Positions 16,268-37,104 of a stretch of 64,000 nt of DNA are shown piece by piece; the stretch's first letter is position 1; the number at the start of each line of letters is the position of its first letter. The DNA is taken from positions 96,001 through 160,000 of the forward strand of contig CAVZDU010000005.1 of NCBI GenBank assembly GCA_963774265.1, in the 5' to 3' direction. The position numbers and the translations under genes were made by a program. This stretch comes from an uncultured Chloroflexia bacterium (GTDB lineage Bacteria > Chloroflexota > Anaerolineae > CG2-30-64-16). Under the pieces are notes generated by a model. The model saw only the letters and a list, made by a program, of their open reading frames with translations. It was not told the DNA's origin and searched no databases.

Positions 16268-17533
<1,266 letters not shown>

Positions 17534-17534
17534 T

Positions 17535-18965
17535 ATGAGCGAGCCGGTCTCCTATTCCCACGATACTTATCTGTCGCCCTACACCTGGCGCTATGGCTCC
17601 GCGGAGATGCGCCGCGTGTGGAGCGAGCTGCACCGGCGGCGTCTGTGGCGGCGGATGTGGGTGGCGCTGGCCGAAGCCGAGCAGTCTGCCGGGTTGGTCA
17701 CGGCGGCGCAGGTGGCGGACTTGAAGGCGCACGCGGAGGAAATCGATCTGCCGCGCGCGCTCGCCATTGAGGCGGAGATCCATCACGACCTGATGGCAGA
17801 GGTGCGCACCTATGCGGAACAGTGCCCCATCGGCGGCGGGATTATCCACCTGGGCGCGACTTCGATGGACATCGAGGATAACGCCGAGGCGCTGCGGATG
17901 CGCGAGGCATTGGACCTGCTCCTCGGCAAGCTGTCGGCCCTCCTGATTGCATTTTCGGACCAGATCGAGCGATGGGCCGACGCTCCGACCATGGCGTTCA
18001 CGCACTTGCAGCCTGCAGAACCGACGACCGTGGGTTACCGCCTGGCCCAGTACGCCCAGGATTTACTCAGCGACTATGGTGACTTACGGAGGGTGCGCGG
18101 GGAGGTGCGCGGCAAGGGATTGAAGGGGGCGGTCGGCACCTCGGCGTCCTATGCCGAACTGCTGTCCGGCACGGATGTAAGCCCCAGAGAACTCGAAGCG
18201 CGCGTGCTCCGCGGCCTCGACCTCGAAGCGTTCCCCGTCGCGACGCAGATTTATCCCCGCAAGCAAGACTACACGGTCTTGTCAGCGTTGGCCAGTCTGG
18301 CACAGTCGCTTTACAAGTTCGCGTTTGACTTGCGGTTTCTTCAGTCGCCCCCCATCGGAGAATGGGCCGAGCCCTTTGGCAAGGCACAGGTGGGCTCCAG
18401 CGCCATGCCCTTCAAGCGCAACCCGATCCACGCCGAGAACGTAGATAGTCTTGCACGCCTGCTCGCGGCTCTGCCACGCGTCGCGTGGGACAATGCGGCA
18501 CATAGCCTTTTGGAGCGGACTCTCGATGACTCGGCGAACCGGCGCACCATTCTGCCGGAGGGATTCTTGATCGCTGACGAGTTGGTCACCCGGTCGACGC
18601 GTCTGATCACCGGGCTACAGGTTGACCGCAGCGCTGCCGAGCGGCTGCTGAGCACCTACGGTCCTTTCGCCGCGACCGAACGGCTGCTGATGGCGCTAGC
18701 GCGCCGCGGCGCGGACCGGCAGGCCGTGCACGAGGTCATTCGGGAGCACGCCATGGCTGCCTGGGTTGTCGTGCAGGCGGGCGGCGTAAACCCGTTGATC
18801 GAGTCGCTGTGCGCGGATGCGCGCCTGACGCAATATGCCTCAGTTGAAGAGATGCGCGGCTGGTTGGATGCATCCCCTTACGTGGGCGATGCGCCGGAAC
18901 GGGCGCGCGACCTGGCTGCGATTCTCAAGCGCAATAGGGGTGAAGCGAGTGCAAGGACCCTCTGA
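17535..18965 (+). CDS. purB: Adenylosuccinate lyase
   Basis: GSSAMPFKRNP fumarase-superfamily signature, IHLGATS, FTHLQPAEPTT; directly follows purA. Confidence 0.95.
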   Translation: MSEPVSYSHDTYLSPYTWRYGSAEMRRVWSELHRRRLWRRMWVALAEAEQSAGLVTAAQVADLKAHAEEIDLPRALAIEAEIHHDLMAEVRTYAEQCPIGGGIIHLGATSMDIEDNAEALRMREALDLLLGKLSALLIAFSDQIERWADAPTMAFTHLQPAEPTTVGYRLAQYAQDLLSDYGDLRRVRGEVRGKGLKGAVGTSASYAELLSGTDVSPRELEARVLRGLDLEAFPVATQIYPRKQDYTVLSALASLAQSLYKFAFDLRFLQSPPIGEWAEPFGKAQVGSSAMPFKRNPIHAENVDSLARLLAALPRVAWDNAAHSLLERTLDDSANRRTILPEGFLIADELVTRSTRLITGLQVDRSAAERLLSTYGPFAATERLLMALARRGADRQAVHEVIREHAMAAWVVVQAGGVNPLIESLCADARLTQYASVEEMRGWLDASPYVGDAPERARDLAAILKRNRGEASARTL

Positions 18966-22341: not shown

Positions 22342-22459
22342 GTGACTCAAATCTTGGTGGGATTCTCGGTGTCTGCACTCATGTTAGCACAGCGCGCGGT
22401 GGATGCAAGTGACGGCGGGGTTGTGCTGGAGTCCGAGTTGAATGTTTGCGCGGCGTTGC

Positions 22460-22488
22460 TTGACAAGGACCGCGGCTTCGGGCATAAT
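22460..22488 (+). promoter_or_regulatory. Sigma70-type promoter of the pheST leader
   Basis: TTGACA-17 bp-CATAAT immediately upstream of the T-box. Confidence 0.8.
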
Positions 22489-22492
22489 CTGG

Positions 22493-24349
22493 TCATAATT
22501 GAATCGCCATTGGCGCAGCCATAAAGCGATGACGGAGGAAAGTAGGCGGGGGGATGACCCCAGAGAAGCCGGGCCCCTGCGAGGGGGCTGAAAGCCCGGC
22601 CGGCCCCAACCCCGATGAAGTTCCCTCCTGAGCGGGCGGGTGAAAGCAATCGTGAAGTAGTCCGCCACGGCAGCCCACCGTTATGGGGCAGCCGGTAAGC
22701 CTGTACAGCCGGGCCGCCGGCCAGAGAGCGGCTTCCCAAGGGAAGCTCGAACCAGGGTGGCACCGCGGAGTGAATACGCGCACTTCGTCCCTCTGCCCGT
22801 TGACAATAAACTGCATAGGCTGCGCAAGCTCACAGCTCACCCAAAGTACCTTCTTACCGTCCTCGTATGCCAGTGTTCCTTCGACGTTCAGTGTTTCTAT
22901 GGCTCTTCGCCGCGTCGCGAAGTCTGATTCGGCGCCTTCCAGACTGACCGCAATCTTAGCGGCGAAGTCTTGCAGGTCCGCTATCTGGTCAGCGGTCAGC
23001 AGGTGCGCCGTCAGGTAGTCGGCCAGGCCGGCGCGCTCCTTCTCCAGCGCGCCTATGGTCGTCTCGATACGGGTGCGGCGCTCGGTCAGCAGGTCCTTGG
23101 AGAAGTCGCCCGAAAGATATAGGTCAAGCAGACGCTCTAGCTGCGTGCGATTCTCGCGGATCAGGTCTTCCACTACCTTCAGCCGCGTTCGTATTGGCGT
23201 ATGCTCGGCTTCTTGTCGCTCGCGGTATGACTCCAGGCCGTCAGCTAGTTTTTGCGGATCAAGCAGGAAGGACCGCACCCAACCCCACACGATAGCGTCG
23301 ACGTCGTCGGCATGCGCTCGCGGGCCGACCTCGCAGGAGTGCGATATCTCACGTTTAGCATGACAGATATAATAGCGCCGCGTCGCGGTCTGCGAATTGG
23401 CGACCAGGCGCGCGCCGCAATGGACGCAGCGCAGCCGACCACTCATTAGATAATCGTAGATCGACTTACGGCGCAGGCTTGTGCGATTGTGGTCCATACG
23501 TACTTGGGCTTGGGCGAAGGTCTCGCGACTTATCAGGGCGGGCACGGTCACGGACAGCGCAGCGTCTTGTGTGAAGTCGCGGTGGTAGCGCCAAAGGCCG
23601 GCGTAGGTCTCGTTACTCAGTATCTTGGATATCGTGCCGCGCGCCCATACGCCGTGCTTGCGCTTCTTGGTGTGTACTTGCCGCGTGTCTTCGTAGGTCG
23701 GCGCACACATGGCGTCCAGCGCGTTCTTAATCGCGGTCATGCTCAGCGCACCGCCCGCGCCGTCGCCGGTCGTATACCACTGGAAGATAAGCCGTACAAT
23801 GCTTGCTTCAGCTTCCTCGATAACCAGCGCAAACTTGCCATTCTCTGACCGATAACGATAGCCATAGGGCGGCCTGCCGTGTACCATGACGCTGCCGGCC
23901 TGGACCTTCAGCACGCGCCCACGCGTCATGCGTTCGTTGATCTTCTCGCGTTCGTATTCGGCTATAGTCGCCTTGATATGCTTGTTTAGCCGGCCTTCGG
24001 GCGAATCGGGATACTCGCCAAGCACGTATTCGATCTGCACGCCAGCCCGCCTTAGCTCTTCTTCGACGACGAGCTGCTTTGCCAGCGACCGCGATAGCCG
24101 GTCGATCTCGCGCACGATCAAGACGTCGAAGTCGCCCGCACGCGCCATGTCACGAACGCGGTTCAGTCGCTCCAGCTCGAAGGCGGCGCCCGACGCGCCG
24201 CGGTCGTCTTCGTGCAGCTCAGCGATGATCTCATAGCCGTGCTCGGTCGCATACTTGCGGCACATCTCCAATTGACCGGCCAGGTTGCGGCCTTCGCGCT
24301 TGGTATCGTCGCTGCTGACTCTGGCGTATAAAACGGATCGCTTGGTCAT
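22493..24349 (-). CDS. Large serine recombinase (integrase); the ORF runs through attL into the antisense T-box
   Basis: YARVSS catalytic motif, DRLSR, AEYEREKINERM, PPYGY, recombinase domain, zinc ribbon (LRCVHCG...YYIC...C) and coiled coil. Confidence 0.95.
   Translation of the reverse strand: MTKRSVLYARVSSDDTKREGRNLAGQLEMCRKYATEHGYEIIAELHEDDRGASGAAFELERLNRVRDMARAGDFDVLIVREIDRLSRSLAKQLVVEEELRRAGVQIEYVLGEYPDSPEGRLNKHIKATIAEYEREKINERMTRGRVLKVQAGSVMVHGRPPYGYRYRSENGKFALVIEEAEASIVRLIFQWYTTGDGAGGALSMTAIKNALDAMCAPTYEDTRQVHTKKRKHGVWARGTISKILSNETYAGLWRYHRDFTQDAALSVTVPALISRETFAQAQVRMDHNRTSLRRKSIYDYLMSGRLRCVHCGARLVANSQTATRRYYICHAKREISHSCEVGPRAHADDVDAIVWGWVRSFLLDPQKLADGLESYRERQEAEHTPIRTRLKVVEDLIRENRTQLERLLDLYLSGDFSKDLLTERRTRIETTIGALEKERAGLADYLTAHLLTADQIADLQDFAAKIAVSLEGAESDFATRRRAIETLNVEGTLAYEDGKKVLWVSCELAQPMQFIVNGQRDEVRVFTPRCHPGSSFPWEAALWPAARLYRLTGCPITVGCRGGLLHDCFHPPAQEGTSSGLGPAGLSAPSQGPGFSGVIPPPTFLRHRFMAAPMAIQL
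22520..22792 (+). ncRNA. T-box riboswitch (Phe-type, pheST leader) whose terminator is truncated by the integrated element
   Basis: Stem I hallmarks (GCGATGACGGAGGAAAGTAG, CAGAGAAGCC, GCTGAAAG), likely specifier TTC at 22621-22623, T-box AACCAGGGTGGCACCGCG, and antiterminator pairing AGGG/CCCT and GCGGAG/CTTCGT. Confidence 0.93.
22775..22808. other. attL junction (host B arm, CT core at 22791-22792, element arm ctgcccgttgacaata)
   Basis: The element arm is a 14/16 inverted match to the arm at 35877-35892. Confidence 0.88.
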
Positions 24350-24384
24350 GGTGTGTTCTCCTTCTTGGGCTAGTCGCCTCACGG

Positions 24385-24412
24385 CTGCGCAGCATGACGT
24401 CATGCTGCGCAG
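24385..24412. repeat. Perfect 28-bp palindrome upstream of the integrase
   Basis: ctgcgcagcatgac|gtcatgctgcgcag. Confidence 0.85.
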
Positions 24413-24424
24413 GGCGTCAGTCGG

Positions 24425-24679
24425 CTAGTCAGCGTCCTTTAGTAACAGGTTAGCGGGCTGCGCGGCCAGCTCCACGCCAATAGCGAAGCAAGCTTCGCCA
24501 TACGCGGCAGCGTAAGCGCTGCCGGCAGCCTCCAGGTCCAGGACCAGGGCGTCATGCTGCGGTGCGACGGTGCGCAGCTTCTCAATCAGGGCGCTGAAGG
24601 CGGCGCTCTCGGCCTGCGCGCGGTCGCTTGCTTGCACGGTTACGACGCCCTCGAAGGCGTCTGCAAAGGTCTTTGTCAT
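24425..24679 (-). CDS. Hypothetical protein (84 aa)
   Basis: AAAGGA Shine-Dalgarno before MTKTFADAF; element-like codon usage. Confidence 0.6.
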   Translation of the reverse strand: MTKTFADAFEGVVTVQASDRAQAESAAFSALIEKLRTVAPQHDALVLDLEAAGSAYAAAYGEACFAIGVELAAQPANLLLKDAD

Positions 24680-24704
24680 GGTCGGATTTCCTTTCTCGGC
24701 GATT

Positions 24705-25028
24705 CTATTGTCGTGTCTTGCCATTGCGGCGCAGCGACCTGGTCGGCTGCGGGTCATAAAACATGCCTTCAGGCAGCGCGGCCCAGTCGCGCGCCTTGCG
24801 CCAATTGAAGTCAGGATCATGGAACGCGCACGGCTCGAAGGCGCCCGCGCGGCGGCAGTTGCCAGCCGCGTAGGCCGAACAGGTGCAGATATCGCGCAGC
24901 ATGTCAGGTTGCGCGCCGCCATGCGCATAAGCGTTGACCTGCGGGCAAAGTTCTCGTTCGTCCAGCCATGTAACATGATTGCGTTGCACGCCGGGTAGCT
25001 CTTTCCAGGTCACGGTCAAGATAGCCAT
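24705..25028 (-). CDS. Hypothetical Cys-rich protein
   Basis: AAGGAGG Shine-Dalgarno before MAILTVTW; CxC...C...C pattern. Confidence 0.55.
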   Translation of the reverse strand: MAILTVTWKELPGVQRNHVTWLDERELCPQVNAYAHGGAQPDMLRDICTCSAYAAGNCRRAGAFEPCAFHDPDFNWRKARDWAALPEGMFYDPQPTRSLRRNGKTRQ

Positions 25029-25231
25029 TGTCAAAGCCCTCCTTGTGATAGGGCCGGGCATTATGGTATGATGTGCCCGGCGTATGGTTCTGCCATTGCC
25101 GACCGGCTCGGCGTGCGTGTCAGCGCTCGCCGGGCCTCTTCTTTCCTTGGTCTCTCGCTGTGCCCTCCTTCCCCTGCTCTATCGTGTCTTGCTTATGGTC
25201 GAAGCTGCCGACCTGTAAGCATGTAAGCAAG

Positions 25232-26042
25232 TTAGTTAGTAACGTCTCGGCCCATGACGTGCCGGCGCAAGATGGGCGTCGCTTGCGCGGGCGTCATGGT
25301 CAGTTGCCAGCCCAGGCGCCGGCGCTCAGGATCGCGCCATGCGGCGACGCCCAGGTCGATCAAGATATCGCGCTTCTTGGCGAAGGCGGCGCGCGCTGCC
25401 GGCGCGGGCGGGATGCCTTGCGCGCTCTCGGACGTGCCGACATTCGCGCACTTGGTCACGAAGGCCAGCAGGTCGACCAGTTCGGCCTGCGCTGCGTTTG
25501 CCTTCTGGATGCGGCCGGCCGTCGCGGGCTTCGCTTGGATTGACCAGCACGGGCGCGGCGTTGACGGTCGGCCTGCCGACATAGCGGTCGCCGTCCAGGT
25601 CGCGCTGCGTGATAGTTTCGATCTGCCATAGCAGGGCGTCGGCCAGGCGCAGGCGCCATAGCCAGGCCAGCGCCAGGACCACGGCGAAGACGATCACGGG
25701 CACGCGCCAGGACCAGCCGGCCGCCCAGGCCAGCAGGCCGGCCATGACGCCGAAGGCGCAGGACGTCAGGAAGGCTTGCGCTGCCGGCACTTGGACGTCA
25801 CTTTCCCAGGTCACGGCGCGCTGCGCCTTCCTGGTCTCGTATTGCGCGACGGATTCGTCTTCCTGGTGCGCTTGCGGCAGGTGTAGCTGGATCACGGGTG
25901 CCGGCAGGCGCGGCCTCCAGCCTTCAGGCGGCCTCACGTCTTCAGGCAGCGCCGGCAGCAGCTCGCCTTCGATCTCTTGGCGGCTCAGGTTGCGCTGCGT
26001 GTAATGCGCCGGTATTGTGTCGATCAATCGCCTAGTTGCCAT
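25232..26042 (-). CDS. Hypothetical membrane protein with two TM helices (frameshift near 25520)
   Basis: ORF 25326-26042 continues in ORF 25232-25582; hydrophobic hairpin and a DLDGD motif. Confidence 0.6.
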
Positions 26043-26222
26043 GCTGTGTATCTTCCAAAAACAAACGCCGGTCGGCTCGGCTGATATGTCGCCAAGCTGA
26101 CCGGCGTAAGTTGCACGGCTGCGCTGTAATGGTAGAATCGTTATAACCGTGTCGCCGGTAGCTTCGGCGGTTGCGGCCAGGGCCGCGCAGGTGTTAGTAG
26201 CACTTGCGCGGTCTGCTTTTCG

Positions 26223-26402
26223 TCAGTCTTCGGTCGCTTCTCCTTGATACTTCGGTAACTCGATCTCGCCATTGGTCCAGGCGCTCAGCAGCCGGCGCAA
26301 GACTTGCGCCAGCGTGATATCTTCGGCCTGCGCCTTCTTCTCGGCTCGGTCGAAGAGTTCCTGCGGTAGTCTGAAGCGAAAGCTCTTATCCTTCGGTATC
26401 AT
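26223..26402 (-). CDS. Ribbon-helix-helix (CopG/Arc-like) DNA-binding protein
   Basis: KSFRFRLPQELFDRAEKKAQAEDITLAQVLRRLL pattern. Confidence 0.7.
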   Translation of the reverse strand: MIPKDKSFRFRLPQELFDRAEKKAQAEDITLAQVLRRLLSAWTNGEIELPKYQGEATED

Positions 26403-26494
26403 GTGTCCCTCATGTGTCACTGAAGGGACTATAACCCAAGGCGACACAGGTGTCAAATTGGCGAAGTGCCGCGCAAGTCGGTTGTCAAGGTGCG

Positions 26495-26528
26495 TAACTG
26501 GCATTATCCCTAGTGATAATGCCAGTTA
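26495..26528. other. lox/dif-like site: perfect 14-bp arms around a 6-bp spacer
   Basis: taactggcattatc-cctagt-gataatgccagtta. Confidence 0.7.
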
Positions 26529-26542
26529 TAAGAAGTTATAGC

Positions 26543-26791
26543 CTACTCGGTCCGACCGACGCGCAGCCGACCGTGCTGCTCGATCTCGCAGATCGCCGAC
26601 GCCATGACTGCCGCGCTCATGCTGCGCCAGGCGACTTCTGACAGTTGGCCTTGACTGTGGCGCATGGCTGCGTCGTGTAGCTTGGCCCATTCGATGACGT
26701 CCAGCGCGGCCAGCACTTCTAACGTCAGCTCTTCAACTTGCTGCGCCAGGGTGGGCTTGATCGCGGCGCGACGCGTCGTGACGTCAGCCAT
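26543..26791 (-). CDS. Hypothetical protein
   Basis: 82-aa ORF co-oriented with its neighbours. Confidence 0.45.
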   Translation of the reverse strand: MADVTTRRAAIKPTLAQQVEELTLEVLAALDVIEWAKLHDAAMRHSQGQLSEVAWRSMSAAVMASAICEIEQHGRLRVGRTE

Positions 26792-26871
26792 GCGGGCCGC
26801 GGTCGCAAACGAAAGTTCGCCGCGCTGTTACGTTCTCGCCCATTTTCGCACCTTTCCCCCGCGCGGGAGGG

Positions 26872-27336
26872 TTAGAAACCGTTTATCGCCAGGTCGTCAA
26901 AATCTCTGCCATACGTCCGTTGACACCACAGCTCAATGAGCGGTGCGTTTTCGTCTGCCCATGCGTTGGCCTCGCGTTCCTGTTGTGCGTTGACACTTGC
27001 CGCCTTCGCATTACTGCGCGCCGCACTCGCAGGCCCAAGTTGCGCGTCAAGTTCGGCTATCCGCGCGACACGTTCGGCTTGTTCCCGTTCGGAGATGTGC
27101 CGCCGCGCGCAATGGCCTAGCTTGATGTGCGCGATTTCATGACTCAACGCCCAAAGCAAGCTGGGCTTGCTGGGGTCGCCATGTATCGCGATGCGCGGGT
27201 CAATCACGATGTGCCAGGCGCGTTCACCTTCGCCCATGCGCGCGCACGCCAGCCCGCCAGGCTCGTACGCCGGGTAGACAATGCACCGTTCACCGCACAT
27301 TTTCGATGCTACACGCGCCAAGAAAAAGACGTTCAT
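26872..27336 (-). CDS. HExxH zinc metallopeptidase-like protein (ImmA/IrrE-like)
   Basis: LSHEIAHIKLGH followed by EREANAWA. Confidence 0.65.
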   Translation of the reverse strand: MNVFFLARVASKMCGERCIVYPAYEPGGLACARMGEGERAWHIVIDPRIAIHGDPSKPSLLWALSHEIAHIKLGHCARRHISEREQAERVARIAELDAQLGPASAARSNAKAASVNAQQEREANAWADENAPLIELWCQRTYGRDFDDLAINGF

Positions 27337-27947
27337 TACCCCGCCTCTCTCTCTGATTCCAGGTCGTTGACCGTCAGGGTGGTTGCCAACGCGCACGCTT
27401 GGGAGACGATCACGAAGGTAAGTTGTGCCTCTTCCACCACGCGCCGCGCCTCTTCCCGTAGGGTGTCGCGAGACTCACCCGCAGCCTGCTTTTGCTCCGC
27501 CGCGAATGGCGCGATACTTTGCCGCGCACGTTCTAGCGCGGCGTTAGCTGCCACGTTCGCGCGTGTCTCAAAGCGCCGTAAGAACGGGATACGCGTTTCC
27601 AGTTCCGCGCGCCGCTGTAGCCAAGCGTCAAGTTGCGCCTCTTCCGTCGGCTCGTGCTCCAAATGCGCGGCCAGCGCCCGCGTCGCTTCAAGCACTACGC
27701 CATGCAACCGCGCTTGCTCTGCGGCCGTCGCGCGCACATCGTCAGCCAGGGCTTGCGGGACAAGCGCAACAAGTTCCGCCTTGATTTCCGAAACCCGCTC
27801 GACCGTGGGGCGCAGCGCTTCAGCCCGGCGTTCCGCATCGGCGTGGGCAACTGCGATATTTGCCGCGTCGATTGTCGCTTGCCGGTCCTCTGTCATGGGT
27901 TCCAACCCAATCCAACCCGACCACCTTGAGAAAAATCCGCCTGTCAT
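27336..27947 (-). CDS. Hypothetical alpha-helical/coiled-coil protein
   Basis: AAAGGA Shine-Dalgarno; rich in A/E/R; abuts the next gene. Confidence 0.6.
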   Translation of the reverse strand: MTGGFFSRWSGWIGLEPMTEDRQATIDAANIAVAHADAERRAEALRPTVERVSEIKAELVALVPQALADDVRATAAEQARLHGVVLEATRALAAHLEHEPTEEAQLDAWLQRRAELETRIPFLRRFETRANVAANAALERARQSIAPFAAEQKQAAGESRDTLREEARRVVEEAQLTFVIVSQACALATTLTVNDLESEREAG

Positions 27948-27992
27948 GCTGTGTTCCTTTCTGCCCGCTTAGGGCTGCCATTTGCTAACAAA

Positions 27993-28583
27993 CTAGAAGG
28001 TGATAAATGCGAATAGCTTCCTGCTGTCTGGCACGCGCTCGGCATACCAGCAGGCAAGCGCTGCGCTCAGGACGAGATCGTCGTGTACGCCCTCGCGCCA
28101 GGCAGCATAGCTGTCATGGGCCGTTTGCGGGTCGATCTTGACCTTGAAGTTTAGAAGCTCGGTTATCATGGTCGGGCCTAAAGCCAGGCCGTCAGCGACC
28201 TTCAGCCGGCCAGTCTGCAAGACGGTCAGCAGGCCGAAGACTAGATCGCGCTTCGGCACGCGCCAATGACCGGCTTCGCAGACGGGCTTGTCGCCGCCCG
28301 TAATGGTTACGGGTGCGACGGCCAGCTGCGCCTGGTGCAGCAGGTCGACCACGGGCGCGCCTACGCCGGTCGCATCCGCGACGATGATGTAACGCCCGTC
28401 GATCTCTGGACCTTCGACCAGCTCTTTGACGCGCGCGACGATGGCCGGGTATGGCGTGCCTAACTTCGGGCGTTCGATATGCCGCAAGGCGTAGGTTATC
28501 GGCTCGGTCTCCAGGCGCTCGATCACGGTTATAGCCGTGTAGTCGGTCGCTTGGCCCAGGTCCAGCCCGACAAAGTATGTCAT
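27993..28583 (-). CDS. Terminase large-subunit nuclease (RNase H-fold) domain encoded as a separate gene
   Basis: GLDLGQATDYTA, ADATGVG, HDDLVLSAALA; own GGAGG Shine-Dalgarno. Confidence 0.8.
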   Translation of the reverse strand: MTYFVGLDLGQATDYTAITVIERLETEPITYALRHIERPKLGTPYPAIVARVKELVEGPEIDGRYIIVADATGVGAPVVDLLHQAQLAVAPVTITGGDKPVCEAGHWRVPKRDLVFGLLTVLQTGRLKVADGLALGPTMITELLNFKVKIDPQTAHDSYAAWREGVHDDLVLSAALACWYAERVPDSRKLFAFITF

Positions 28584-28585
28584 AT

Positions 28586-29336
28586 TCAACCTCCGAATAG
28601 CGGCTTGACGTCTGCCGTAATGCTCGACATGACTAGGTCATAGCCGAAGACCTGGTCGACGGTTTCGACAAATTCGCAAAGGTATTCTTGGCGATACCAG
28701 AAGTCGCCAAGCGCGGCGCGCTCTTCTGCCAGGAAGGCCGGCGCGATCGCGCGGGCAGTCGTGCGCTGTGACCTTGACACGCTGCCAGCCGGCGCCGCCA
28801 TTGGTCCAGGTATCGAAGTACCAGCCGCGCTTGCCGAAGGGCGTGCTCAGGCCGACCAGCCGCCCGCCCGATACGGCCAGCATGGGCCGCACGCTGAAGT
28901 ATAGGTCGTCGGGTACGCGCGCGGCTTCGTCCAGGACCAGTAGATTGACGCCACTGTAGCCGCGGATCGTCTCTTCCTTGCCCGGCAGCGATACGATGCG
29001 GCTGCCGTTCTTCAGGTGCAGCGCCAGGGCGCTCTCTGCGGCGCTAGGTGCTTCTGTGGCGAATTGCGCGTAGAATGACATGACCTTGCGGAAAAGCTCG
29101 CCAGACTGGCGCAGCGACGGCGACAGCAGTAAGACCAGCGCAGGCGGGCGATAGATTGCTTCCCACAAGGCCGCGCAGGCGGTCACGGTTGACTTGCCGG
29201 CCTGCCGGGTGCATAACAGCAGCGACCGCGGCGCTCGGCTGCGCAGTAGATCACGCTGCCATTGGTCGGGGTCCAGGCCGGCGCGGGCCATGACCAGCGA
29301 TGGGTCAAGCGCGACGGCCAGGTCGTCAGTCAACAT
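28586..29336 (-). CDS. Terminase large-subunit ATPase domain (one indel near 28748)
   Basis: Q motif (WQ), Walker A CTRQAGKS, Walker B LLVLDEAA, coupling motif LSTP, and QEYLCEF after the frameshift. Confidence 0.85.
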
Positions 29337-29811
29337 TGCGCAGCGCCTCCGCGACGGCGATACGGGCGTCAGGGTACGGCGCCAGCGCGTCAAGGATCAC
29401 GCCGCGCACGCGCTGCCAGTCGGGCGACTGGACCAGCACGGCGACTTGCACGCGCTCGGCCTCCAGTTCTCCGACGATGCGCCCGACCAGCTCCAGGTTC
29501 TGCCGCGCTTGGCTGACAGCTTGCAGCGCGGTGCGCAGGTCTTGCGCCTCGTAAGCGATTTTCAGTATGTTCATGGTGACGATCTGCAAGCGCTTCATTT
29601 GCGCCAGCAGATCATCGGCCTGCGCGACCTCGCGCGCTTCCTGCGCCTTCGCCAGCGCCGCGGGAAGGTGCTTCTCTTTGTGCCGGCGCAGCGACGTCTC
29701 GATAACGTCGTATAGCGTCGCAATCTCGCGATTTGAGACGCTACCGGCAGCCAGCGCACGGTCGATAGCTTCGCGCTGCGGGTGGGTGCAGATCGTGCAA
29801 GGTCGCGTCAT
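29326..29811 (-). CDS. Putative small terminase / HTH protein
   Basis: CTICTHP zinc motif, HTH (NREIATLYDV...SLRRH), helical tail; overlaps the start of the terminase ATPase gene. Confidence 0.6.
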   Translation of the reverse strand: MTRPCTICTHPQREAIDRALAAGSVSNREIATLYDVIETSLRRHKEKHLPAALAKAQEAREVAQADDLLAQMKRLQIVTMNILKIAYEAQDLRTALQAVSQARQNLELVGRIVGELEAERVQVAVLVQSPDWQRVRGVILDALAPYPDARIAVAEALRNVD

Positions 29812-29825
29812 TTTCGTTGCCTCAT

Positions 29826-30146
29826 TTATTCGTCTTCGACCAGCCAGTCGGGCGCCATGCCGGCGAAGGGGTTAGACTCTGCGTCGGGCTTGTGCGCGCC
29901 ATACCTGCGCAGGTGCTTCGCCAGGTTCTCCTGGAGGGCGTACAGTAGCAGCCAGGCGTTATGCGGCGTCATGATGATGCGGGCGTCGACCTGGACCGTC
30001 AACGGGCTAGGCAGCAGCTTGGCGAAGTCGATCACAATCTCAGACTCAGCATGGCTGATAATCGCGTGATTGCTGTAAACCGGCTCCAGCTTCGCAGGTA
30101 GCCAGACGGCGACCTGCGGGGCGCTGCGCTTCTTATGCTTGCTCAT
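29826..30146 (-). CDS. DUF3467-like protein
   Basis: VYSNHAIISH...EIVIDF...ARIIMTP pattern. Confidence 0.7.
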   Translation of the reverse strand: MSKHKKRSAPQVAVWLPAKLEPVYSNHAIISHAESEIVIDFAKLLPSPLTVQVDARIIMTPHNAWLLLYALQENLAKHLRRYGAHKPDAESNPFAGMAPDWLVEDE

Positions 30147-30212
30147 ATCTTCGATCTCCTGTGCTTGGGCCGGCCTGCGACCTCTTGTCAGCAGGCCGGC
30201 GCAGGTGTATGC

Positions 30213-30743
30213 TTAGGCCAGGTCTTCGTCAGTCGGGCCTGGATCGGCTAGGTCGTCGTCACTCAGTTCGGGCCAGCCGGGCGGCTCGGCGTGCGAAGTC
30301 TGCGCTACGGTCGCCCGCGGTTGCATCGCGGGCGGCTGCGCGTCTGGCGCTGGCTGTGCCCTTCTGGTCGGCAGCGCGGCGCGGACCGGCAGCACATCTT
30401 TGACCTTGTTATAGGTCTCGCCGTCGCTGCCGCGCTCGGTGCTGACGACGATCTGGACGCGCTTGTCCAACAGGTCGTCGCTGTCGAAGGTGTAGTCGTC
30501 GGGAATGGCACGCCCGCCAAAGATCGCGGCCTTGGCCCAGGCCCATAGCTTCGCCTTGGGTGACAGCTTGCAGGACGTCCAGCCGGTCAGCGACCGATCG
30601 CTGAAGTCAGGGTCCAGCAGGTCGAAGCGGATCTTAAGCTGACTACCGAATTGCCCTTCGGCCTGCTCTACGTTGCCGACCTGCGCCATATAGACGCCAG
30701 CCGGGATAGGTTCATACTTCGTCTGTTCAATTTTGATTCCCAT
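30213..30743 (-). CDS. Putative phage-type single-stranded DNA-binding protein (DUF669-like)
   Basis: YEPIPAGVYMAQV N-terminus, beta-rich core and acidic C-terminal tail; next to the primase. Confidence 0.55.
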   Translation of the reverse strand: MGIKIEQTKYEPIPAGVYMAQVGNVEQAEGQFGSQLKIRFDLLDPDFSDRSLTGWTSCKLSPKAKLWAWAKAAIFGGRAIPDDYTFDSDDLLDKRVQIVVSTERGSDGETYNKVKDVLPVRAALPTRRAQPAPDAQPPAMQPRATVAQTSHAEPPGWPELSDDDLADPGPTDEDLA

Positions 30744-30788
30744 TGCGATTGCTCCTAAGTGTGCTGTGTGCCTTGCGGCTTTGGGTTG

Positions 30789-30852
30789 CGTCTGCGTGTG
30801 TGCGGTCCAGGCACGTCTGCGTTTGTGCGGTCCAGGCACGTCTGCGTTTGTG
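30789..30852. repeat. 2.5 tandem copies of a 25-bp unit (iteron-like)
   Basis: cgtctgcgt(g/t)tgtgcggtccaggca at 30789 and 30814, partial copy at 30839. Confidence 0.8.
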
Positions 30853-30855
30853 TTC

Positions 30856-31206
30856 TCAGGCGGCAGCCTCCAAGTCGGCTACATACAGCGTGCCGGTCGT
30901 CGGGTCGCCCCCGACGATGCGCAGCCCGCGCTCGGCCAGGTACTCGCTCGGCGTGAAGTCCCACGATAACGGGATATGCAGCGGTTGCGCGTTCGGGTCG
31001 CTGCGCCAGGACAGCCGGCGCAGGTAGTCGAGCAGCTCGGCCTTATGCTCGGCCAGGCCGGCGCGCAGATCGTCGTCTATGGCGCCCTTCGGCGCTTCGA
31101 CATACAGTCTCTCGCCGCGCGCGGCAAGCCCGATTTGCCGGCCTTCGCACTCGTTTAGCAGGTCAGATAGCTCTTGATAATGTCGCTTGTAAGAAGGCAT
31201 TGTCAT
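30856..31206 (-). CDS. Small primase-associated hypothetical protein (TubC-N-like)
   Basis: LYVEAPKGAIDDDLRAGLAEHKAELLDYL; overlaps the primase stop codon. Confidence 0.55.
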   Translation of the reverse strand: MTMPSYKRHYQELSDLLNECEGRQIGLAARGERLYVEAPKGAIDDDLRAGLAEHKAELLDYLRRLSWRSDPNAQPLHIPLSWDFTPSEYLAERGLRIVGGDPTTGTLYVADLEAAA

Positions 31207-33551
31207 AGCTCGAAGACCTCCACTTCGACAGGCGCGACTACCTGGTCGTCAGTCTGTGCCGTTATGCCGTCGCTGCCGTTTGTGCCGTTAATATAGAGAG
31301 TATCGCCTTGGGTCTTCTCCAGTTCTTCAGGTATCGGCAGCCCATAGGCGACCAGCCAGCCGACAAGGTCGGCCGCGCTGATATGCCAGCCCTTCGCTTT
31401 CGACGTGCGCTCGGCCTTCAGGCGCATCTTGCCCAGGACGCGACCGACGCGGCGCGACGTTACGCTATCCGGGTCCATGTCGGCCTCGATTTCCTCGACT
31501 ACTTCCTTCGCGGCCTGCGTGATGGCTGAAGTCTTGAAGGTAAATGCCTTCTCGACAGTCTCCTTATTAACGGCACTAATGGCATTGGCGGCATAACGGC
31601 ACAAGGCGCGAATGACGATGGCGGTCAGGTCGCCGATCTCCAGATCGACGCGCTCTTCCTGGTAGGCTAGGCTCAGGGCTTCGATGCGGTCCCATAAGCC
31701 GGCTGTGCCGTTATCGTCCAGCCATAAGGCGACGGCCAGGATCGCGCGCCAAGGCTCCAGGTTGCGACCAGTCAGGCGGCCGCGCTCGTTAACCAGCGTC
31801 TCATAGCGCGGCAGCTCAGGCAGCCGGCTCAGGCCCAAGGCCCATAGATCGTCAAGTAAGCTGCGCCGGTCGTGCGGCCATAGCTCATAGTCCAGCGGGT
31901 CAGCGTTCGCCCGGTAGCGGTCGGGTGTGCGGATTAACGGCACGATGATTGTGCGGCTTGCCAGGATTGCGTCGGGTAGCTTAGTTGCGCTGAAGAGACG
32001 CGGGCAGAAGGTGTTGACATAGCGTGTGCGCCATTGGCGCTCGCCGGCAGACTCTTTTACCGGCACGGTATTGCCGCGCCGGTTGCCGGCCAGTAGCAGC
32101 GCGCGCTTGTCAGGATCACTTGACTTTGCGTCGCTCATGTTCTCGGCGTCGTCGAAGGCCAGCATGGCGCCATAGTCGGCCAAATCGCGCAGACTTGCAA
32201 AGCTGCCGCCCGCCAAGATCACTTGGCCCAAGTAGCCAAGTTCAGCATCGACGGTCAGTAACTGCGTCTTGCCGCTGCCGCGGTCGCCGTTCGGCCATAG
32301 GAAGCCGACCACGTTGAAGGCGTCCAGAAAGTAGGAAGCCAGCACGTAGCAGGCGTTTAGCTCAGCCATTGTGCGCTGGTCAGCCAATGACTTGTTGAAG
32401 TCAATGAAGCGGTCGACAGTGTCAGTCACGCGGGCGAAGACGCCGGCCGGGTCGGGTCGCTGACCGGCTTTATATGCCTTGACAGCGCGGGCGCTCCATA
32501 GCTTCTCAGCGGGCGGGATTTCAGGCAGATGCACTTCGATAGCCAGCTCCTCGAAGCTGGCGTCGCCGCCGTCGCCAAAGATGCGGCCATCGTCACGGAT
32601 CACGAAGACCTGTCGCGTTGTCGTGATAATAGGCGGGTTATGCCGCACGATCTCGCCGGTCTTCGATATGCTCTCGGTCTGCGTGACCTTGACGTATAGC
32701 CAGGTCGCCGCGTAGGCGCGGCCGTCGATCAAGGCCAGCGGGCGGCCTATCATGCGCGGCTCGGCCTCCAGTAATTCGATCTGTGCCGGCGACGGCGTCG
32801 GCAGCGGTCGCGGTGCTTCGACCAGGGCTTCCAGCTCGGCGCGGGTATGACCGGCTGCGAAGAAGTCGTCAATACCTTGTTTCTTGCCGCCCTCGCCGGG
32901 CGGCAGATAGACAACGGTTACGCGCGCGCCGCGGCGCTGTAGGAAGGGCGTCAGGCGCTTCAGGGCTTGTTGCACTTCAAACTTGCGCGTTACGTCACTG
33001 TCGAAGACGATGCGCACAGCGCGGCCCTTCAGGGCGACGTCTTCCCAGTCGGCTAGGGCAGTTGTGCCGCCCACGTCATTGCTGCCGCGCCAGTTCCAGA
33101 CGCCAAGTAGGGCGATAGCGCAATAGCCTTGCGAAGCCAGCGCGTCGGCCTTCTTCTGGCCCTCTGTCAGCCATAGGTCGACGGTCGGGTCGCCAAGTTG
33201 CGGGCGACAGGTAGGCGGGCAGTCCAGGCGCATCGAAGCCTTCTTCGGTTGCTCATACTTCAGGACGTCCTGCGGGTAGGTGCCGTCTGGAAGCTTCGGC
33301 TTGTCCTTCTTGTCGAAGACGCGCGGCGCATCGGGTCGAATCACATACAGGCCATTACTGGCATCGGGCGGGCAGACGGGCAAGACCAGCGCCGGCACGC
33401 GGCGCTGCGCAGGTGCAAAGCCCAGGTCGGCCAGTTCTTCGCGGGCCGTCGCGGTGAAGTAGCCGCGCGCTTGGATCACGGCGTCGCTGATAGCCGATTC
33501 CTCGCGCAATATGGCGCGATGCTCAGGCGACAGGTAGCTTCTGTCTGGCAT
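31203..33551 (-). CDS. Replication protein: DUF3854/Toprim-like primase fused to a P-loop NTPase
   Basis: LWLTEGQKKAD, IVFDSD, KQGIDDF; Walker A GDRGSGKT and Walker B LAFDDAE. Confidence 0.85.
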   Translation of the reverse strand: MPDRSYLSPEHRAILREESAISDAVIQARGYFTATAREELADLGFAPAQRRVPALVLPVCPPDASNGLYVIRPDAPRVFDKKDKPKLPDGTYPQDVLKYEQPKKASMRLDCPPTCRPQLGDPTVDLWLTEGQKKADALASQGYCAIALLGVWNWRGSNDVGGTTALADWEDVALKGRAVRIVFDSDVTRKFEVQQALKRLTPFLQRRGARVTVVYLPPGEGGKKQGIDDFFAAGHTRAELEALVEAPRPLPTPSPAQIELLEAEPRMIGRPLALIDGRAYAATWLYVKVTQTESISKTGEIVRHNPPIITTTRQVFVIRDDGRIFGDGGDASFEELAIEVHLPEIPPAEKLWSARAVKAYKAGQRPDPAGVFARVTDTVDRFIDFNKSLADQRTMAELNACYVLASYFLDAFNVVGFLWPNGDRGSGKTQLLTVDAELGYLGQVILAGGSFASLRDLADYGAMLAFDDAENMSDAKSSDPDKRALLLAGNRRGNTVPVKESAGERQWRTRYVNTFCPRLFSATKLPDAILASRTIIVPLIRTPDRYRANADPLDYELWPHDRRSLLDDLWALGLSRLPELPRYETLVNERGRLTGRNLEPWRAILAVALWLDDNGTAGLWDRIEALSLAYQEERVDLEIGDLTAIVIRALCRYAANAISAVNKETVEKAFTFKTSAITQAAKEVVEEIEADMDPDSVTSRRVGRVLGKMRLKAERTSKAKGWHISAADLVGWLVAYGLPIPEELEKTQGDTLYINGTNGSDGITAQTDDQVVAPVEVEVFEL

Positions 33552-33711
33552 TGGTTGTCTCGATTTCGGTCTGTTGGGTAGTCTGGTCGGCAGCCTGCGC
33601 GCGTTGCCGCGCGGCCAGGTCCAGCAATAGGGCATAAACCGCGCCCAGGCGCCGCTTGCGCTCTTCGTCGGTCATGGGTGCGGCGGTCGGTCGGTCAGCT
33701 TTGGCGGTCAT
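33523..33711 (-). CDS. Small hypothetical protein
   Basis: AAGGAG Shine-Dalgarno; overlaps both neighbours. Confidence 0.5.
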   Translation of the reverse strand: MTAKADRPTAAPMTDEERKRRLGAVYALLLDLAARQRAQAADQTTQQTEIETTNARQKLPVA

Positions 33712-33889
33712 GCTGCGCTCCTTGCGGCTCGGCAGCCGGCGCCGGCTCGGTGGATAGCTCGCGCTTGACAGCGTCGCGCACAAGCTGCGCCAGAACGGCT
33801 TCTTCAGGTTCGCGGCGCTTCTCGGCAAGCTCGGCCAGCGCCAGGCGCTCCATTAGCGGTAGTCTTATCCTTTGCCAGCCTACGGTCAT
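33695..33889 (-). CDS. Small RHH-like DNA-binding protein
   Basis: IRLPLMERLALAELAEKRREP...LAQLVRDAV; GGAG Shine-Dalgarno. Confidence 0.5.
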   Translation of the reverse strand: MTVGWQRIRLPLMERLALAELAEKRREPEEAVLAQLVRDAVKRELSTEPAPAAEPQGAQHDRQS

Positions 33890-33899
33890 ATGCATCTCC

Positions 33900-33939
33900 A
33901 AAAACAAGAATGGGCGTGACTTTCGATCACGCCCATTCT
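33900..33939 (-). terminator. Intrinsic terminator/attenuator ahead of the replication operon
   Basis: 13-bp perfect stem agaatgggcgtga/tcacgcccattct followed by TGTTTTT on the minus strand. Confidence 0.65.
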
Positions 33940-33968
33940 CATATGGTTTGCCGTTCGCTTAGGTCTAT

Positions 33969-34671
33969 TTAGACATTTCGCACTTTTCGCACAAGCCTAG
34001 TTTCGATCTCTCGCTTGATCTCGGCTTCGATCTCAGGCCAAGTCTCACGGTAGCGCTCCAGGGTCGACCGCGCCTTGCCGACCAATTGCGCAGCTTCGTC
34101 TCGGCTATTGCCGTTCTCCAGGTAATAGCGAAGATACTTTCTCAGTTCGCCCTCCATGACCTCGCGGCGTGGGTCGCCAGGCTCCAGGTCTGCCAGTCGT
34201 GGCGCGCCGTACGTCGCGCGCTCGCGGCGGCTCGGCCTGCGTCTGGTCGATCACCAGCCCGCGCTGCGTTAGTTCGGCCTGGACCTTCTCCCATAGTGGC
34301 GCCATACTCGAAAAGTCTTCGACCAGTTCGCTTTGCGCGGGCTTGTCGCGATCAGTCTTGGTATACTGGACGATGCGCGCACTCGCAGTTAACAGGGTGT
34401 AGTCGGTTAGCTTCTCGGCTTGAAACATGCCGCCCCTGAATCCCTGCCTATCGGGCGAATATCGGCCTATGACTTCGATCACGATAACGGGCGTCTCTTC
34501 TGGTAGGTCCAGTGTCGACCAGTTGCGCACCTTCCTGGTAACATCGGCCATACTGGTAGGCCGGTCTTCGTGGGGATACACCACAGGACGAAGGTCAGGG
34601 TCTTCGGCCAGGACGGCCAGCACGCGCCGGGCGATCTGCGCCGGTGTGCCCTTGCATTTGATCTCTTCCAT
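33969..34671 (-). CDS. Hypothetical protein with a C-terminal HTH (frameshift near 34225)
   Basis: ORF 34105-34671 joins the frame ending SRDEAAQLVGKARSTLERY. Confidence 0.55.
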
Positions 34672-34711
34672 CGTCTCACCTCTGCGTTTGCGTTTGCGTT
34701 TTTGGCCGGCT

Positions 34712-35689
34712 TCAGTCTCGGCGTGTGATGTACGGAATGTGCAAGCTCTTGCTCGCCTTGCGCTTGACTTCGTCGCCGCGCCGGTCATAGTTGGCGGTCG
34801 TCGTCGGGCTGCTGTGGCCCATTAGCTTTTGCACCGTAACTAGGTCGTTACCATTATCTAGCAGGTTGCCCGCGAAGGTGCGTCGGAAGTCATGCCAGCT
34901 GAGCGGTGCGACGCCGGCCTGCTCGCGGCGCTTCTGTAGCATTTGCGCCAGCGCTTCGTCGCTCGGACCGTGCCCGGCGTCGATCGCGCCGCCCTTATTG
35001 ATCGCATAGAATAGCGGCCCTGCGGCGTCGCCGCGCAGGGCCAGCCAGTCGGCCAGATAGCTTGCGGCGCCATTGAAGACATAGACGACGCGCGGCTTCT
35101 GGCCCTTGCCGAAGATGTGCAGATCGCCTTCGTTGGCGCCCGTATTGATGTAGTCAGCTCGCTTCAGGCCGGCCAATTCGGACCGGCGCGCGCCGGTCGA
35201 CCAGCCCAGGGCGATGATTGCCGCGTCGCGGGCGCCTGCGGGCGACGGATCGTTGACGCAGGCTTCCAGCAGCGCCTTGACTTCGCCGGTCGTGATATGC
35301 CGGCCCTTCTGTGTGCGCTCGCCGCGCACGTCGCGCACGCCAGCGACGCGCTCGGCTTGGGCGACGATCTCGGCACGCTCAGCGCGTTCTTTGTCGTCGC
35401 GGGCGGGTCGATCTTGCGCCTTGTCGGACAGCCGGCGCGCATACCAGCGGATCGCGGCCAGCGTGCGGTTGATCGTTCTTGGCGCCTTGCCGGCCTGCTG
35501 AAGCTCGGCCGCGTAGGATTCGACCAGCAGCTTTGACAATGGCCGGCTGCCGCGCCAGGTCTCGAAGGTGTGCAGATCGCGCAGATAGCCGCGCTTCGTG
35601 TTCAGCGACCGCAGGCGCGGGTCGCTCTCTAGCTCGGCAGCGATGCGCTGAAGGGCGTCATTCTCGATAACGGTCAGGCTTGCGGTCAT
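34712..35689 (-). CDS. Tyrosine recombinase (XerD-like)
   Basis: RDAAII...TGARRSEL, GKG, HDFRRT, LMGHSSPTTTANYDRR. Confidence 0.95.
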   Translation of the reverse strand: MTASLTVIENDALQRIAAELESDPRLRSLNTKRGYLRDLHTFETWRGSRPLSKLLVESYAAELQQAGKAPRTINRTLAAIRWYARRLSDKAQDRPARDDKERAERAEIVAQAERVAGVRDVRGERTQKGRHITTGEVKALLEACVNDPSPAGARDAAIIALGWSTGARRSELAGLKRADYINTGANEGDLHIFGKGQKPRVVYVFNGAASYLADWLALRGDAAGPLFYAINKGGAIDAGHGPSDEALAQMLQKRREQAGVAPLSWHDFRRTFAGNLLDNGNDLVTVQKLMGHSSPTTTANYDRRGDEVKRKASKSLHIPYITRRD

Positions 35690-35746
35690 GGTGTTTACTC
35701 CTTGGCGCTTGCGCTTGTCTTCTTACAAGTTAGATTATCACTAGCG

Positions 35747-35774
35747 ATTATAACACAGAACAGGCGCCTGTCAA
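35747..35774 (-). promoter_or_regulatory. Consensus promoter for the tyrosine recombinase operon
   Basis: Minus strand TTGACA-16 bp-TATAAT with an extended TG; inverted repeat ggcgcctg/caggcgcc (35763-35788) overlaps the -35. Confidence 0.8.
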
Positions 35775-35804
35775 GTCGACCAGGCGCCCGTAAAAGCTCC
35801 GACT

Positions 35805-35833
35805 TTGCCCTTATCGGCCTTTAGTCTTACAAT
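35805..35833 (+). promoter_or_regulatory. Element-encoded outward promoter pointing at pheS
   Basis: TTGCCC-17 bp-TACAAT, 60 bp inside attR. Confidence 0.65.
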
Positions 35834-35876
35834 TCGCAAGCTCAAAACGCGCCGCGATGGCGTAAGGCATTGTATC

Positions 35877-35914
35877 TATTGTCAATGGGAAGCTGTGACG
35901 GAGGGCGCGTTTTG
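35877..35914. other. attR junction (element arm tattgtcaatgggaag, CT core at 35893-35894, then the 3' half of the T-box terminator)
   Basis: gacggagggcgcgt pairs with acgcgcacttcgtc at 22776-22789 and is followed by TTT. Confidence 0.88.
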
Positions 35915-36016
35915 CGTTAAGAGGGGCTTTCCCAATCGCAAAGCCACAAACAAGCACAAAGATCACAAAGGACGTCGAACTGTTCATGCGAGGCGTAGTA
36001 TGTCGGAGGTGTCAGT

Positions 36017-37069
36017 ATGCACGATAACCTGAGCAAGCTGCAGGCTGAGGCGCTGGAGGCGCTGGCCGCGGCGACGGAGGCGGACGCGCTCGAAGCGTGG
36101 CGCGTGCGCTATCTGAGCCGAAAGGGCGGCGCGTTGTCTGCGGCCATGGATGTGATCGGCAAGTTGCCGCGCGAGGAACGACCCGCATACGGCCAGGCGG
36201 CCAACGAGGTGAAGGCCAGCCTGGAAGAGGCGTTCGGCGCACGGCAGGAAGCGCTGAAGCAGGAGGCTCTGGCCGCGGAGCTCGCCGGTGGGATCGTGGA
36301 TGTCACGCTGCCCGGCCGGCCGCCCAGCATCGGCCACCTGCACATCACGACGCAGAACCTGCGCGAATATCGAGCCGTCTTTGCGGAGATGGGCTTCGAG
36401 GTCTACGACGCGCCGGATGTCGAAACGGACGAGAACAACTTCGGCCTGCTGAACATTCCGCCTTACCACCCGGCTCGCGATATGTGGGACACCTTCTGGG
36501 TCAGCCAGGACGTGCGGCCCGATCCGGGACAGCGCACCTTGGTGATGCGCACACACACCAGCCCGGGCCAGATTCGCGCGATGCGGGAGCGCTGCCCCGA
36601 GCCGATCCGCGTCATTCTGCCGGGCAAGTGCTACCGCTACGAGCAGATTACGGCGCGTTCGGAGCACCAGTTCTACCAGATCGAAGGGTTGGCGGTGGGC
36701 AAGAACATCCGCCTGACCGATCTGATCGGCACCCTCAAGCAGTTCGCTGTGAAGATGTACGGCGCAGGCGAGCTGCGGGTGCGCGGCAGCTACTTCCCCT
36801 TCACTGAGCCGAGCATCGAGGCCGACATGAATTGCGTTCTGTGCGACGGGAAGGGGTGCGGCGTATGCAAGTATACCGGCTGGCTGGAGATCGCCGGCGC
36901 GGGTATGGTGCACCCGGTCGTGCTGCGGAACGGCGGCTACGACCCCGACGTGTTCACCGGCTTCGCGTTCGGCATGGGTGTCGAGCGGCCGGCCATGCTG
37001 CGGCATGCAATCAGCGACATCCGGTATTTTTACTCGAACGACCTGCGTTTTCTCGGGCAGTTCGGTTGA
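36017..37069 (+). CDS. pheS: Phenylalanine--tRNA ligase alpha subunit
   Basis: HPARDMWDTF, RTHTSPGQ, FYQIEGL, YFPFTEPS, GFAFGMGVER. Confidence 0.98.
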   Translation: MHDNLSKLQAEALEALAAATEADALEAWRVRYLSRKGGALSAAMDVIGKLPREERPAYGQAANEVKASLEEAFGARQEALKQEALAAELAGGIVDVTLPGRPPSIGHLHITTQNLREYRAVFAEMGFEVYDAPDVETDENNFGLLNIPPYHPARDMWDTFWVSQDVRPDPGQRTLVMRTHTSPGQIRAMRERCPEPIRVILPGKCYRYEQITARSEHQFYQIEGLAVGKNIRLTDLIGTLKQFAVKMYGAGELRVRGSYFPFTEPSIEADMNCVLCDGKGCGVCKYTGWLEIAGAGMVHPVVLRNGGYDPDVFTGFAFGMGVERPAMLRHAISDIRYFYSNDLRFLGQFG

Positions 37070-37104
37070 TCTGCGGGTTGCAGGCTGAAAGTTGAAGGTT
37101 GACC

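Follow-up and report, generated by a model that had tools for sequence, protein, structure and literature searches.

Large serine integrases catalyze recombination between an attP and an attB site, the reverse reaction between attL and attR requires a directionality factor, and excision by these enzymes is precise. Their signature is a 2-bp overlap flanked by inverted arms; tyrosine recombinases need an identical overlap of ~6–8 bp. Site-specific elements are known to pick conserved words as targets, among them tRNA genes, terminators and certain coding genes. A118 (at comK), phiC31 and Bxb1 provide further large serine integrases. Published reports describe serine-recombinase switches in coding genes, among them SPbeta in spsM (PMC5499854) and skin in sigK (PMC5025042); PMC5595907 also deals with such switches. 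Here we report on a window of 64,000 nucleotides (G000:C5:96001-160000), the whole stretch of DNA that was analyzed, taken from a metagenome-assembled Chloroflexota genome (G000; 5.5 Mb in 10 contigs, 84% complete, GC content 62%). In this window a 13,102-bp integrative element separates a phenylalanine (Phe) T-box leader from pheST, the essential synthetase operon it belongs to. We consider it very probable that a serine integrase inserted this element into the terminator loop of the pheST T-box, with putative consequences for pheST control.

In several respects the locus resembles the described systems. Like SPbeta SprA/spsM and skin SpoIVCA/sigK, it combines a three-domain integrase, a 2-bp crossover and a quasi-palindromic attP, and like other serine-recombinase gene-intervening elements it interrupts a functional unit of the host, which would be restored by precise excision. 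Unlike serine-integrase phages and gene-intervening elements, its target is a riboswitch-type expression platform, not a coding sequence or tRNA gene. The crossover falls between the antiterminator and the 3' arm of the terminator, and the interrupted unit controls an essential housekeeping operon that must therefore stay expressed in the lysogen. With prophages and islands residing in intrinsic terminators or tRNA genes it shares a conserved, hairpin-forming non-coding word as target, but those sites follow a gene and the displaced part is usually restored, whereas here a regulatory terminator precedes its genes and the sensor is cut off. The type of event is known, and the target, a T-box terminator loop, is unusual. 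No literature report of a T-box or riboswitch as attachment site was found by title or abstract, and the tables of large serine-integrase-site surveys could hold one. The locus comprises the following features.

22460-22488, + strand: host promoter-like site of the T-box leader, TTGACA-17-CATAAT, 11/12
22520-22795, + strand: Phe T-box leader with Stem I, UUC at the specifier position, T-box sequence and complete antiterminator
22776-22792, + strand: terminator 5' arm, identical with the antiterminator 3' strand and the left half of attB, ending in the crossover CT (22791-22792)
22793-35894, no strand: integrated element, 13,102 bp, with every recognizable gene on the - strand
35895-35914, + strand: orphaned terminator 3' arm with its U-run, the right half of attB
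36017-37069, + strand: pheS (Pfam PF01409 and PF02912)
37099-39597, + strand: pheT, after pheS; two frame changes cause it to be read as two open reading frames (ORFs), 37099-37704 and 37810-39597

The leader matches the Rfam T-box model RF00230 from end to end (model positions 1–219 of 219) with 69.9 bits and an E value of 1.4e-13, under the curated cut-off of 93 bits. Since 14 uninterrupted T-box-pheS leaders of relatives score 51.2–77.7 bits, all likewise under 93, we read the sub-threshold score as a trait of the clade and not as truncation. The word GAAGTTCCCTCC, which contains UUC at the specifier position, is unchanged in all 15 aligned leaders; UUC sits after GAAG and beside the closing strand of Stem I, and the gene downstream in relatives is pheS. 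Assigned by position and partly by inference, UUC would be the Phe specifier codon. The promoter-like region aligns from query base 1 in three relatives of the genus (L002, L004 and L008). As the model stops at the antiterminator, the terminator lies outside the match, and in the window DNA as it stands it is split: the competing pair of structures is restored solely after in silico joining of 22792 to 35895, upon which the flanks fold into a hairpin with a U-run at -23.5 kcal/mol. The distance from the leader to pheS is 13.2 kb with the element between them, and a single pheS match was found in the assembly, so that one copy is present as far as found. A sequence-only reading of the window had claimed a full Phe T-box 13.2 kb upstream of pheS, a terminator overlapping the antiterminator once 22792 and 35895 are joined, and an uncoupling of the leader from the operon; the first two are borne out by these data, and physical separation of the T-box from single-copy pheS follows directly from the sequence. 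Its junction letters, 22776-22792 on the left and 35895-35913 on the right, agree with ours.

Related genomes preserve the uninterrupted form. The left flank was searched in 61 neighborhood genomes, 40 of which matched, and 20 loci were examined; one of these (L001) is the window itself and another (L007) is truncated, so that 18 were informative. All 18 run contiguously from the left flank through the terminator 3' arm and U-run into pheS, as the sequence-only reading had anticipated, and two of them (L005 and L014) are identical to the in silico junction over 19 nt, the very word given by that reading. Mutually exclusive antiterminator and terminator structures with a U-run are present in every one of these relatives. 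The terminator helix is paired in 93.3% of alignment cells, vs 23–62% with a slid partner, and three terminator pairs show compensatory changes on both sides. Few non-coding words of the family are as conserved as the left half of attB, with CTTCGTCCCTG found in 15 of the 18. In one further detail, tandem repeats of the GGTAGATTGG type, followed by inverted copies, occupy the space past the pheS T-box terminator at locus L020 (genome G018).

Empty sites were also detected in metagenome contigs. In Logan contigs from two soil runs, 22790 is joined to 35893, with 13,102 bases left out and an ambiguity of 2 bases that corresponds to CT (run X1, depth 3.2, side 36; run X3, depth 2, side 29). In run X2, a loose end at 22792 runs on as the terminator arm of a relative, and pieces of 151–240 nt are 93–97% similar to the integrase and to further genes of the element. 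Closely related DNA occurs in both states, empty and occupied, in soil runs of a single study. At nearby bases the empty-site contigs do not agree with the window; they represent the empty site in close relatives and not excision in this strain. The four metagenome runs that were searched contain 0.06–0.09 of the sampled words, with most of the element barely or not covered; at this coverage no contig bridged attL or attR, and the attP circle joint was not seen. Of the two junctions the sequence-only reading would look for, then, the empty attB was recovered, in near relatives, and the circle was not. That two unrelated pieces were misjoined into an assembly artefact is scarcely credible: although the genome is metagenome-assembled, 84% complete, spread over 10 contigs and affected by frame errors, both junctions are base-exact and together form a conserved attB, the element ends yield attP arms, an integrase gene lies at the edge, and independent contigs skip the identical 13,102 bases.

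The recombination sites and the two recombinase genes at the element edges are as follows.

22793-22808, no strand: attP right arm (element left end), 14/16 inverted match to 35877-35892
35877-35894, no strand: attP left arm (35877-35892) and crossover CT (35893-35894)
22493-24403, - strand: large serine integrase ORF, likely start 24352 (MTKRSVLYARVSS), crossing the left junction
34712-35689, - strand: tyrosine recombinase, XerC/D-like (PF00589 and PF02899)

The only bases common to both junctions are the non-palindromic CT (22791-22792 and 35893-35894), and other registers are incompatible with the four sequences. Around this dinucleotide the element-end arms are complementary at 14 of 16 positions, a match not reached by any of 300,000 position pairs drawn at random from the window, and attP overlaps the 3' end of the integrase gene. 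Because only CT is shared, the inverted arms center on it and an integrase gene lies at the edge, a serine mechanism is indicated, and an attP x attB event of this kind in the terminator loop is well supported by the sequences at hand. Insertion by the tyrosine recombinase at the right end is highly improbable. This gene does occupy the opposite edge and follows a perfect consensus promoter, but with an overlap of 2 bp instead of the ~6–8 identical bp required, the enzyme cannot account for the insertion; moreover, the inverted arms center on CT beside the serine integrase gene, and the tyrosine recombinase gene, unlike the rest of the element, has 67–69% DNA paralogues elsewhere.

The serine integrase carries the three expected domains, namely Resolvase (PF00239, E 7e-27, residues 24–170), Recombinase (PF07508, E 5.5e-13) and Zn_ribbon_recom (PF13408, E 9e-10). 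Its closest solved structure, a distant match, is the SPbeta integrase (9dxh, E 1.8e-14); a YARVSS motif is present in the translation, and the RVSSDD stretch aligns to the N-terminal RRSRQD stretch of 9dxh. The integrase matches 706 phage records, the best 10 of the 706 at 26–29% identity. It aligns end to end with its homologues with no stops, and the ORF is intact. Two proposals of the sequence-only reading, that a discrete element has been inserted whose edge carries a large serine integrase and that the joined ends form an attP with symmetric arms, are upheld by these domains and by the arm statistics given above.

Integration would exchange the C-terminal tail of the integrase. In the integrated state, the codons from 22792 down to 22493 represent 99 aa of host T-box DNA read antisense, and the protein is 619 aa long; with the element ends joined it measures 547 aa, of which 27 aa past the junction are element-encoded. 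Phage Mx8, whose Int is a tyrosine integrase, offers a parallel. Mx8 attP is reported to lie inside the int coding sequence, so that integration makes a new int 3' end (PMC6070905). The integrase ORF described here likewise has its tail altered by integration (27 to 99 aa), but unlike Mx8 int it encodes a serine integrase. Homologues of the integrase occur in 60 of 401 genomes of the class, a tally that includes one unpublished genome (G370). At 25 of 30 homologue loci, those with a C-terminal hit, the ORFs end in unrelated tails of 1–64 residues right past the end of the alignment. Because the tails of these 25 ORFs are unrelated just beyond the alignment, an attP placed over the int 3' end looks like a habit of the clade.

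In the sequence, the two sites are an attP with 16-bp imperfect inverted arms around CT and an attB formed by the loop in which the intrinsic pheST leader terminator turns. To the left of the crossover, which falls directly past the antiterminator 3' strand, the T-box is retained complete with its antiterminator; pheST, together with the U-run and the terminator 3' arm, is displaced by 13.1 kb. Two features at the right end of the element bear on how the operon would then be transcribed.

35805-35833, + strand: candidate outward promoter toward pheS, TTGCCC-17-TACAAT, 9/12, by consensus match only
35843-35853, + strand: element-borne 11-mer (CAAAACGCGCC), candidate surrogate terminator arm, exact complement of host 35904-35914

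On the left, the T-box would gate nothing after insertion, because the intact antiterminator has no terminator to compete with, and its promoter would read constitutively into element DNA, antisense to int. No substitute was found in the left end of the element: 22300-24600 gave no terminator-like site, and for a surrogate terminator arm at attL the longest complement was 5 nt (P 0.88). Read-through over 13 kb from the T-box promoter to pheS is unlikely, because strong + strand hairpins at 26180-26214 and 33907-33939 intervene. These hairpins (16 and 13 pairs respectively) are perfect or near-perfect, lie in intergenic gaps and may be bidirectional terminators that split the element into transcription units. 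Beyond the left junction, an amino-acid permease gene (20395-22350, - strand) is divergent from the T-box promoter; minus-strand transcripts leaving the element via the integrase ORF, which ends at 22493, would reach it in the sense direction.

On the right, single-copy pheST is probably transcribed from the end of the element, with 35805-35833 as the candidate promoter. No promoter was called in the spacer between the U-run and pheS, which is not conserved among the six relatives aligned with the window. A transcript from this site would pass through a hybrid hairpin, half element and half host, in which the 11-mer pairs with the orphaned arm plus U-run (35904-35914). Expression of pheST would then be set by the element, and charging of tRNA-Phe would no longer be sensed. 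A complement as long arose in 4 of 5000 dinucleotide shuffles (P ~0.0008, a post hoc value, as the hairpin was spotted after looking) and in none of 635 other 100-nt segments of the window, and RNA from 35840 folds at -32.4 kcal/mol with a z score of -2.85. The hairpin exists in the integrated state only. It could, at a guess, serve as a partial terminator or insulator ahead of pheS, and the 11-nt complement argues for an element adapted to this site.

Several observations weigh against the insertion and its proposed consequences. Besides the missing circle joint and the post hoc nature of the hairpin statistic, the event is a single instance, and the candidate outward promoter is a 9/12 consensus site from a scan that may not model the promoters of this phylum. 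Base-level errors are present in the assembly, as frame changes in pheT and in the terminase ATPase ORF indicate. The dyad of the terminator lies one base off CT, the attB arms matching at 12 of 15 positions when slid by one and at 2 of 15 when centered on CT. Of the earlier idea that the integrase uses the terminator palindrome as attB, the T-box terminator loop as target and the 2-bp CT overlap stand, and recognition of the palindrome itself is, given this register, at most conceivable. The best full-length identity to the integrase is ~53%, with no close relative found, so that the choice of attB is without a replicate. No T-box motif was found at any of 53 integrase-homologue loci, the controls being 19 of the 20 T-box loci (all except the truncated L007) and L021, and Rfam returned no hits in 15 integrase-homologue loci. 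A related element in genome G012 has another target, the 3' end of a Peptidase_S9 gene, and the window element was found in none of seven other genomes of the genus. From the homologue loci, the low identity and the genus genomes, we take the T-box target to be specific to this integrase and seen once; from this single instance, the site could at most be conjectured to be the regular attB of the integrase.

The same observations raise the question of an accidental insertion at a secondary (pseudo-attB) site by an element whose normal target lies elsewhere, tolerated as a one-off lysogen. In its favor are the single instance, the other targets used by homologues and the poor symmetry of the attB arms about CT. 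We nevertheless consider it unlikely, given that an 11-nt complement to the host arm at precisely this site is hard to explain by accident, and that the highly conserved left half of attB is the kind of target favored by site-specific elements.

Insertion of an element by its serine integrase into the pheST terminator loop also leaves room for a reversible regulatory switch, or 'active lysogeny', in which conditional excision and re-integration toggle pheST between T-box and element control to the benefit of the host. The intact integrase ORF is consistent with such a switch, as is the precision of serine-integrase excision, which would restore the leader exactly and give a terminator identical to that of relatives. 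Empty-site joints in runs X1 and X3 and the element-like pieces in X2 share one study as their source, the surrogate arm hints that the element is adapted to the site, and SPbeta/spsM (PMC5499854) and skin/sigK (PMC5025042) are serine-recombinase precedents. A switch is distinctly improbable all the same. At several bases the empty-site contigs do not match the window, and no attP circle joint accompanied them; no directionality factor was recognizable by homology in the element; the occupied state is not conserved (0/7 other genus genomes, with the loci of all 18 relatives empty); and pheST is needed constantly, so that the on/off logic of sporulation genes does not apply. We give correspondingly little credence to a fuller scenario in which a site-adapted element rewires pheST, its own outward promoter and hybrid terminator replacing tRNA sensing, the T-box promoter acting as an antisense brake on the integrase, and precise excision reverting the arrangement, which would amount to a reversible DNA-level swap of riboswitch output.

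The remaining features of the element, all on the - strand, are listed in order of position.

26223-26504, - strand: Arc-like repressor candidate (phrog_6506, E 1.6e-8)
26872-27396, - strand: 174-aa protein with an HExxH motif (HEIAH), no Pfam hit, phrog_1914 at E 0.005, of putative function only
27993-28589, - strand: nuclease half of the terminase large subunit in its own ORF (Terminase_6C, E 9.8e-4)
28586-29393, - strand: ATPase half of the terminase large subunit (Terminase_6N, E 8.8e-10), with one frame change near 28800 in a three-frame reading
29326-29811, - strand: 161-aa ORF in small-terminase position with a weak helix-turn-helix (HTH) match only; a 55% identical ORF occupies the same place in the G012 element
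30213-30839, - strand: DUF669 protein (Pfam E 7.3e-4)
Between the DUF669 protein and the DUF3854 replication protein in the list, - strand: TubC_N-like protein
31203-33635, - strand: 810-aa replication protein with a DUF3854 Toprim-like N-terminus (PF12965, E 8.7e-22) and a GSGKT P-loop-like motif in the translation
35747-35774, - strand: perfect consensus promoter into the element, TTGACA-16-TG-TATAAT, 12/12, with extended -10

Domain and phrog scans recognized no capsid, portal or tail genes, which speaks against the element being a complete prophage. In its makeup it is similar to a satellite or small integrative replicon. With PICI-type satellites it shares a size of 13 kb, an integrase, repressor-like genes, a primase-type replication protein and terminase genes together with the lack of recognizable capsid, portal and tail genes; unlike them it has a tyrosine recombinase in addition and encodes a large terminase, spread over two ORFs, and it has no viral-contig match and no known helper, and PICI membership is at most conceivable. 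No relatives of the integrase or of the replication protein were found in viral contigs, and against the phage collection the replication protein gave one weak partial match. Its homologues occur in 18 of the 401 class genomes, several of them beside an integrase homologue. The GC content of the element does not stand out from that of its flanks, and composition thus speaks neither for nor against a foreign origin. The promoter at 35747-35774, a sigma-70 consensus in a genome of 62% GC, points toward the tyrosine recombinase gene and the remaining element DNA. DNA paralogues at the 67–69% level elsewhere in G000 and the genus (G000:C2:818185-822353, and also G007:C15 and G001:C40) were found for this recombinase gene and for no other part of the element; the gene may be one of a distinct and widely distributed family of small elements or Xer-like genes.

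Overall, the element belongs to a family in Chloroflexota that combines a replication protein, terminase genes and a large serine integrase at the edge. The G012 element has the same gene order (replication protein, small ORF, two terminase ORFs, integrase); inverted repeats gave no information on its limits. Its terminase is also split, with ATPase and nuclease ORFs in the same frame and a stop between them (L088, 11546-13000), so the split may be a trait of the family. At this locus (G012:C6:497000-516999), the integrase ORF (17016-18932, - strand), which is 49% identical to ours, overlaps the convergent Peptidase_S9 3' end by 77 nt. An HTH_17 (excisionase-like) ORF (15093-15512) lies directly upstream of the G012 integrase, and no counterpart was recognized in the window element. 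As for the frame changes in the window, the tRNA_bind domain of pheT is found in ORF 37099-37704 and the B3_4, B5, core and FDX-ACB domains in ORF 37810-39597. The PheT-like reading exits frame 0 near 37650 and is back near 37780 (within 37640-37810), which corresponds to two compensating frame changes. Because pheT is an essential, single gene, these changes and that of the terminase are probably consensus (indel) errors of the assembly, and the terminase is therefore not called a pseudogene.

In summary, the insertion is real and precisely defined, as is its serine-integrase mechanism; what follows for regulation is plausible and inferred, in one metagenome-assembled instance. A riboswitch expression platform serving as attB would add a target class with a logic of its own: the strand shared by antiterminator and terminator is kept constant by RNA structure, as the presence of CTTCGTCCCTG in most relatives illustrates, and a terminator is inherently an inverted repeat, suited to a dimeric recombinase. 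T-box terminators would lend themselves to a systematic scan for integration hot spots, and an integrase with short sites and a core of 2 bp may be of use as an orthogonal recombinase. For the host, the question is how the loss of tRNA-charge sensing is tolerated for an essential synthetase and whether the element compensates for it. The candidate outward promoter and the surrogate hairpin arm suggest that it might.

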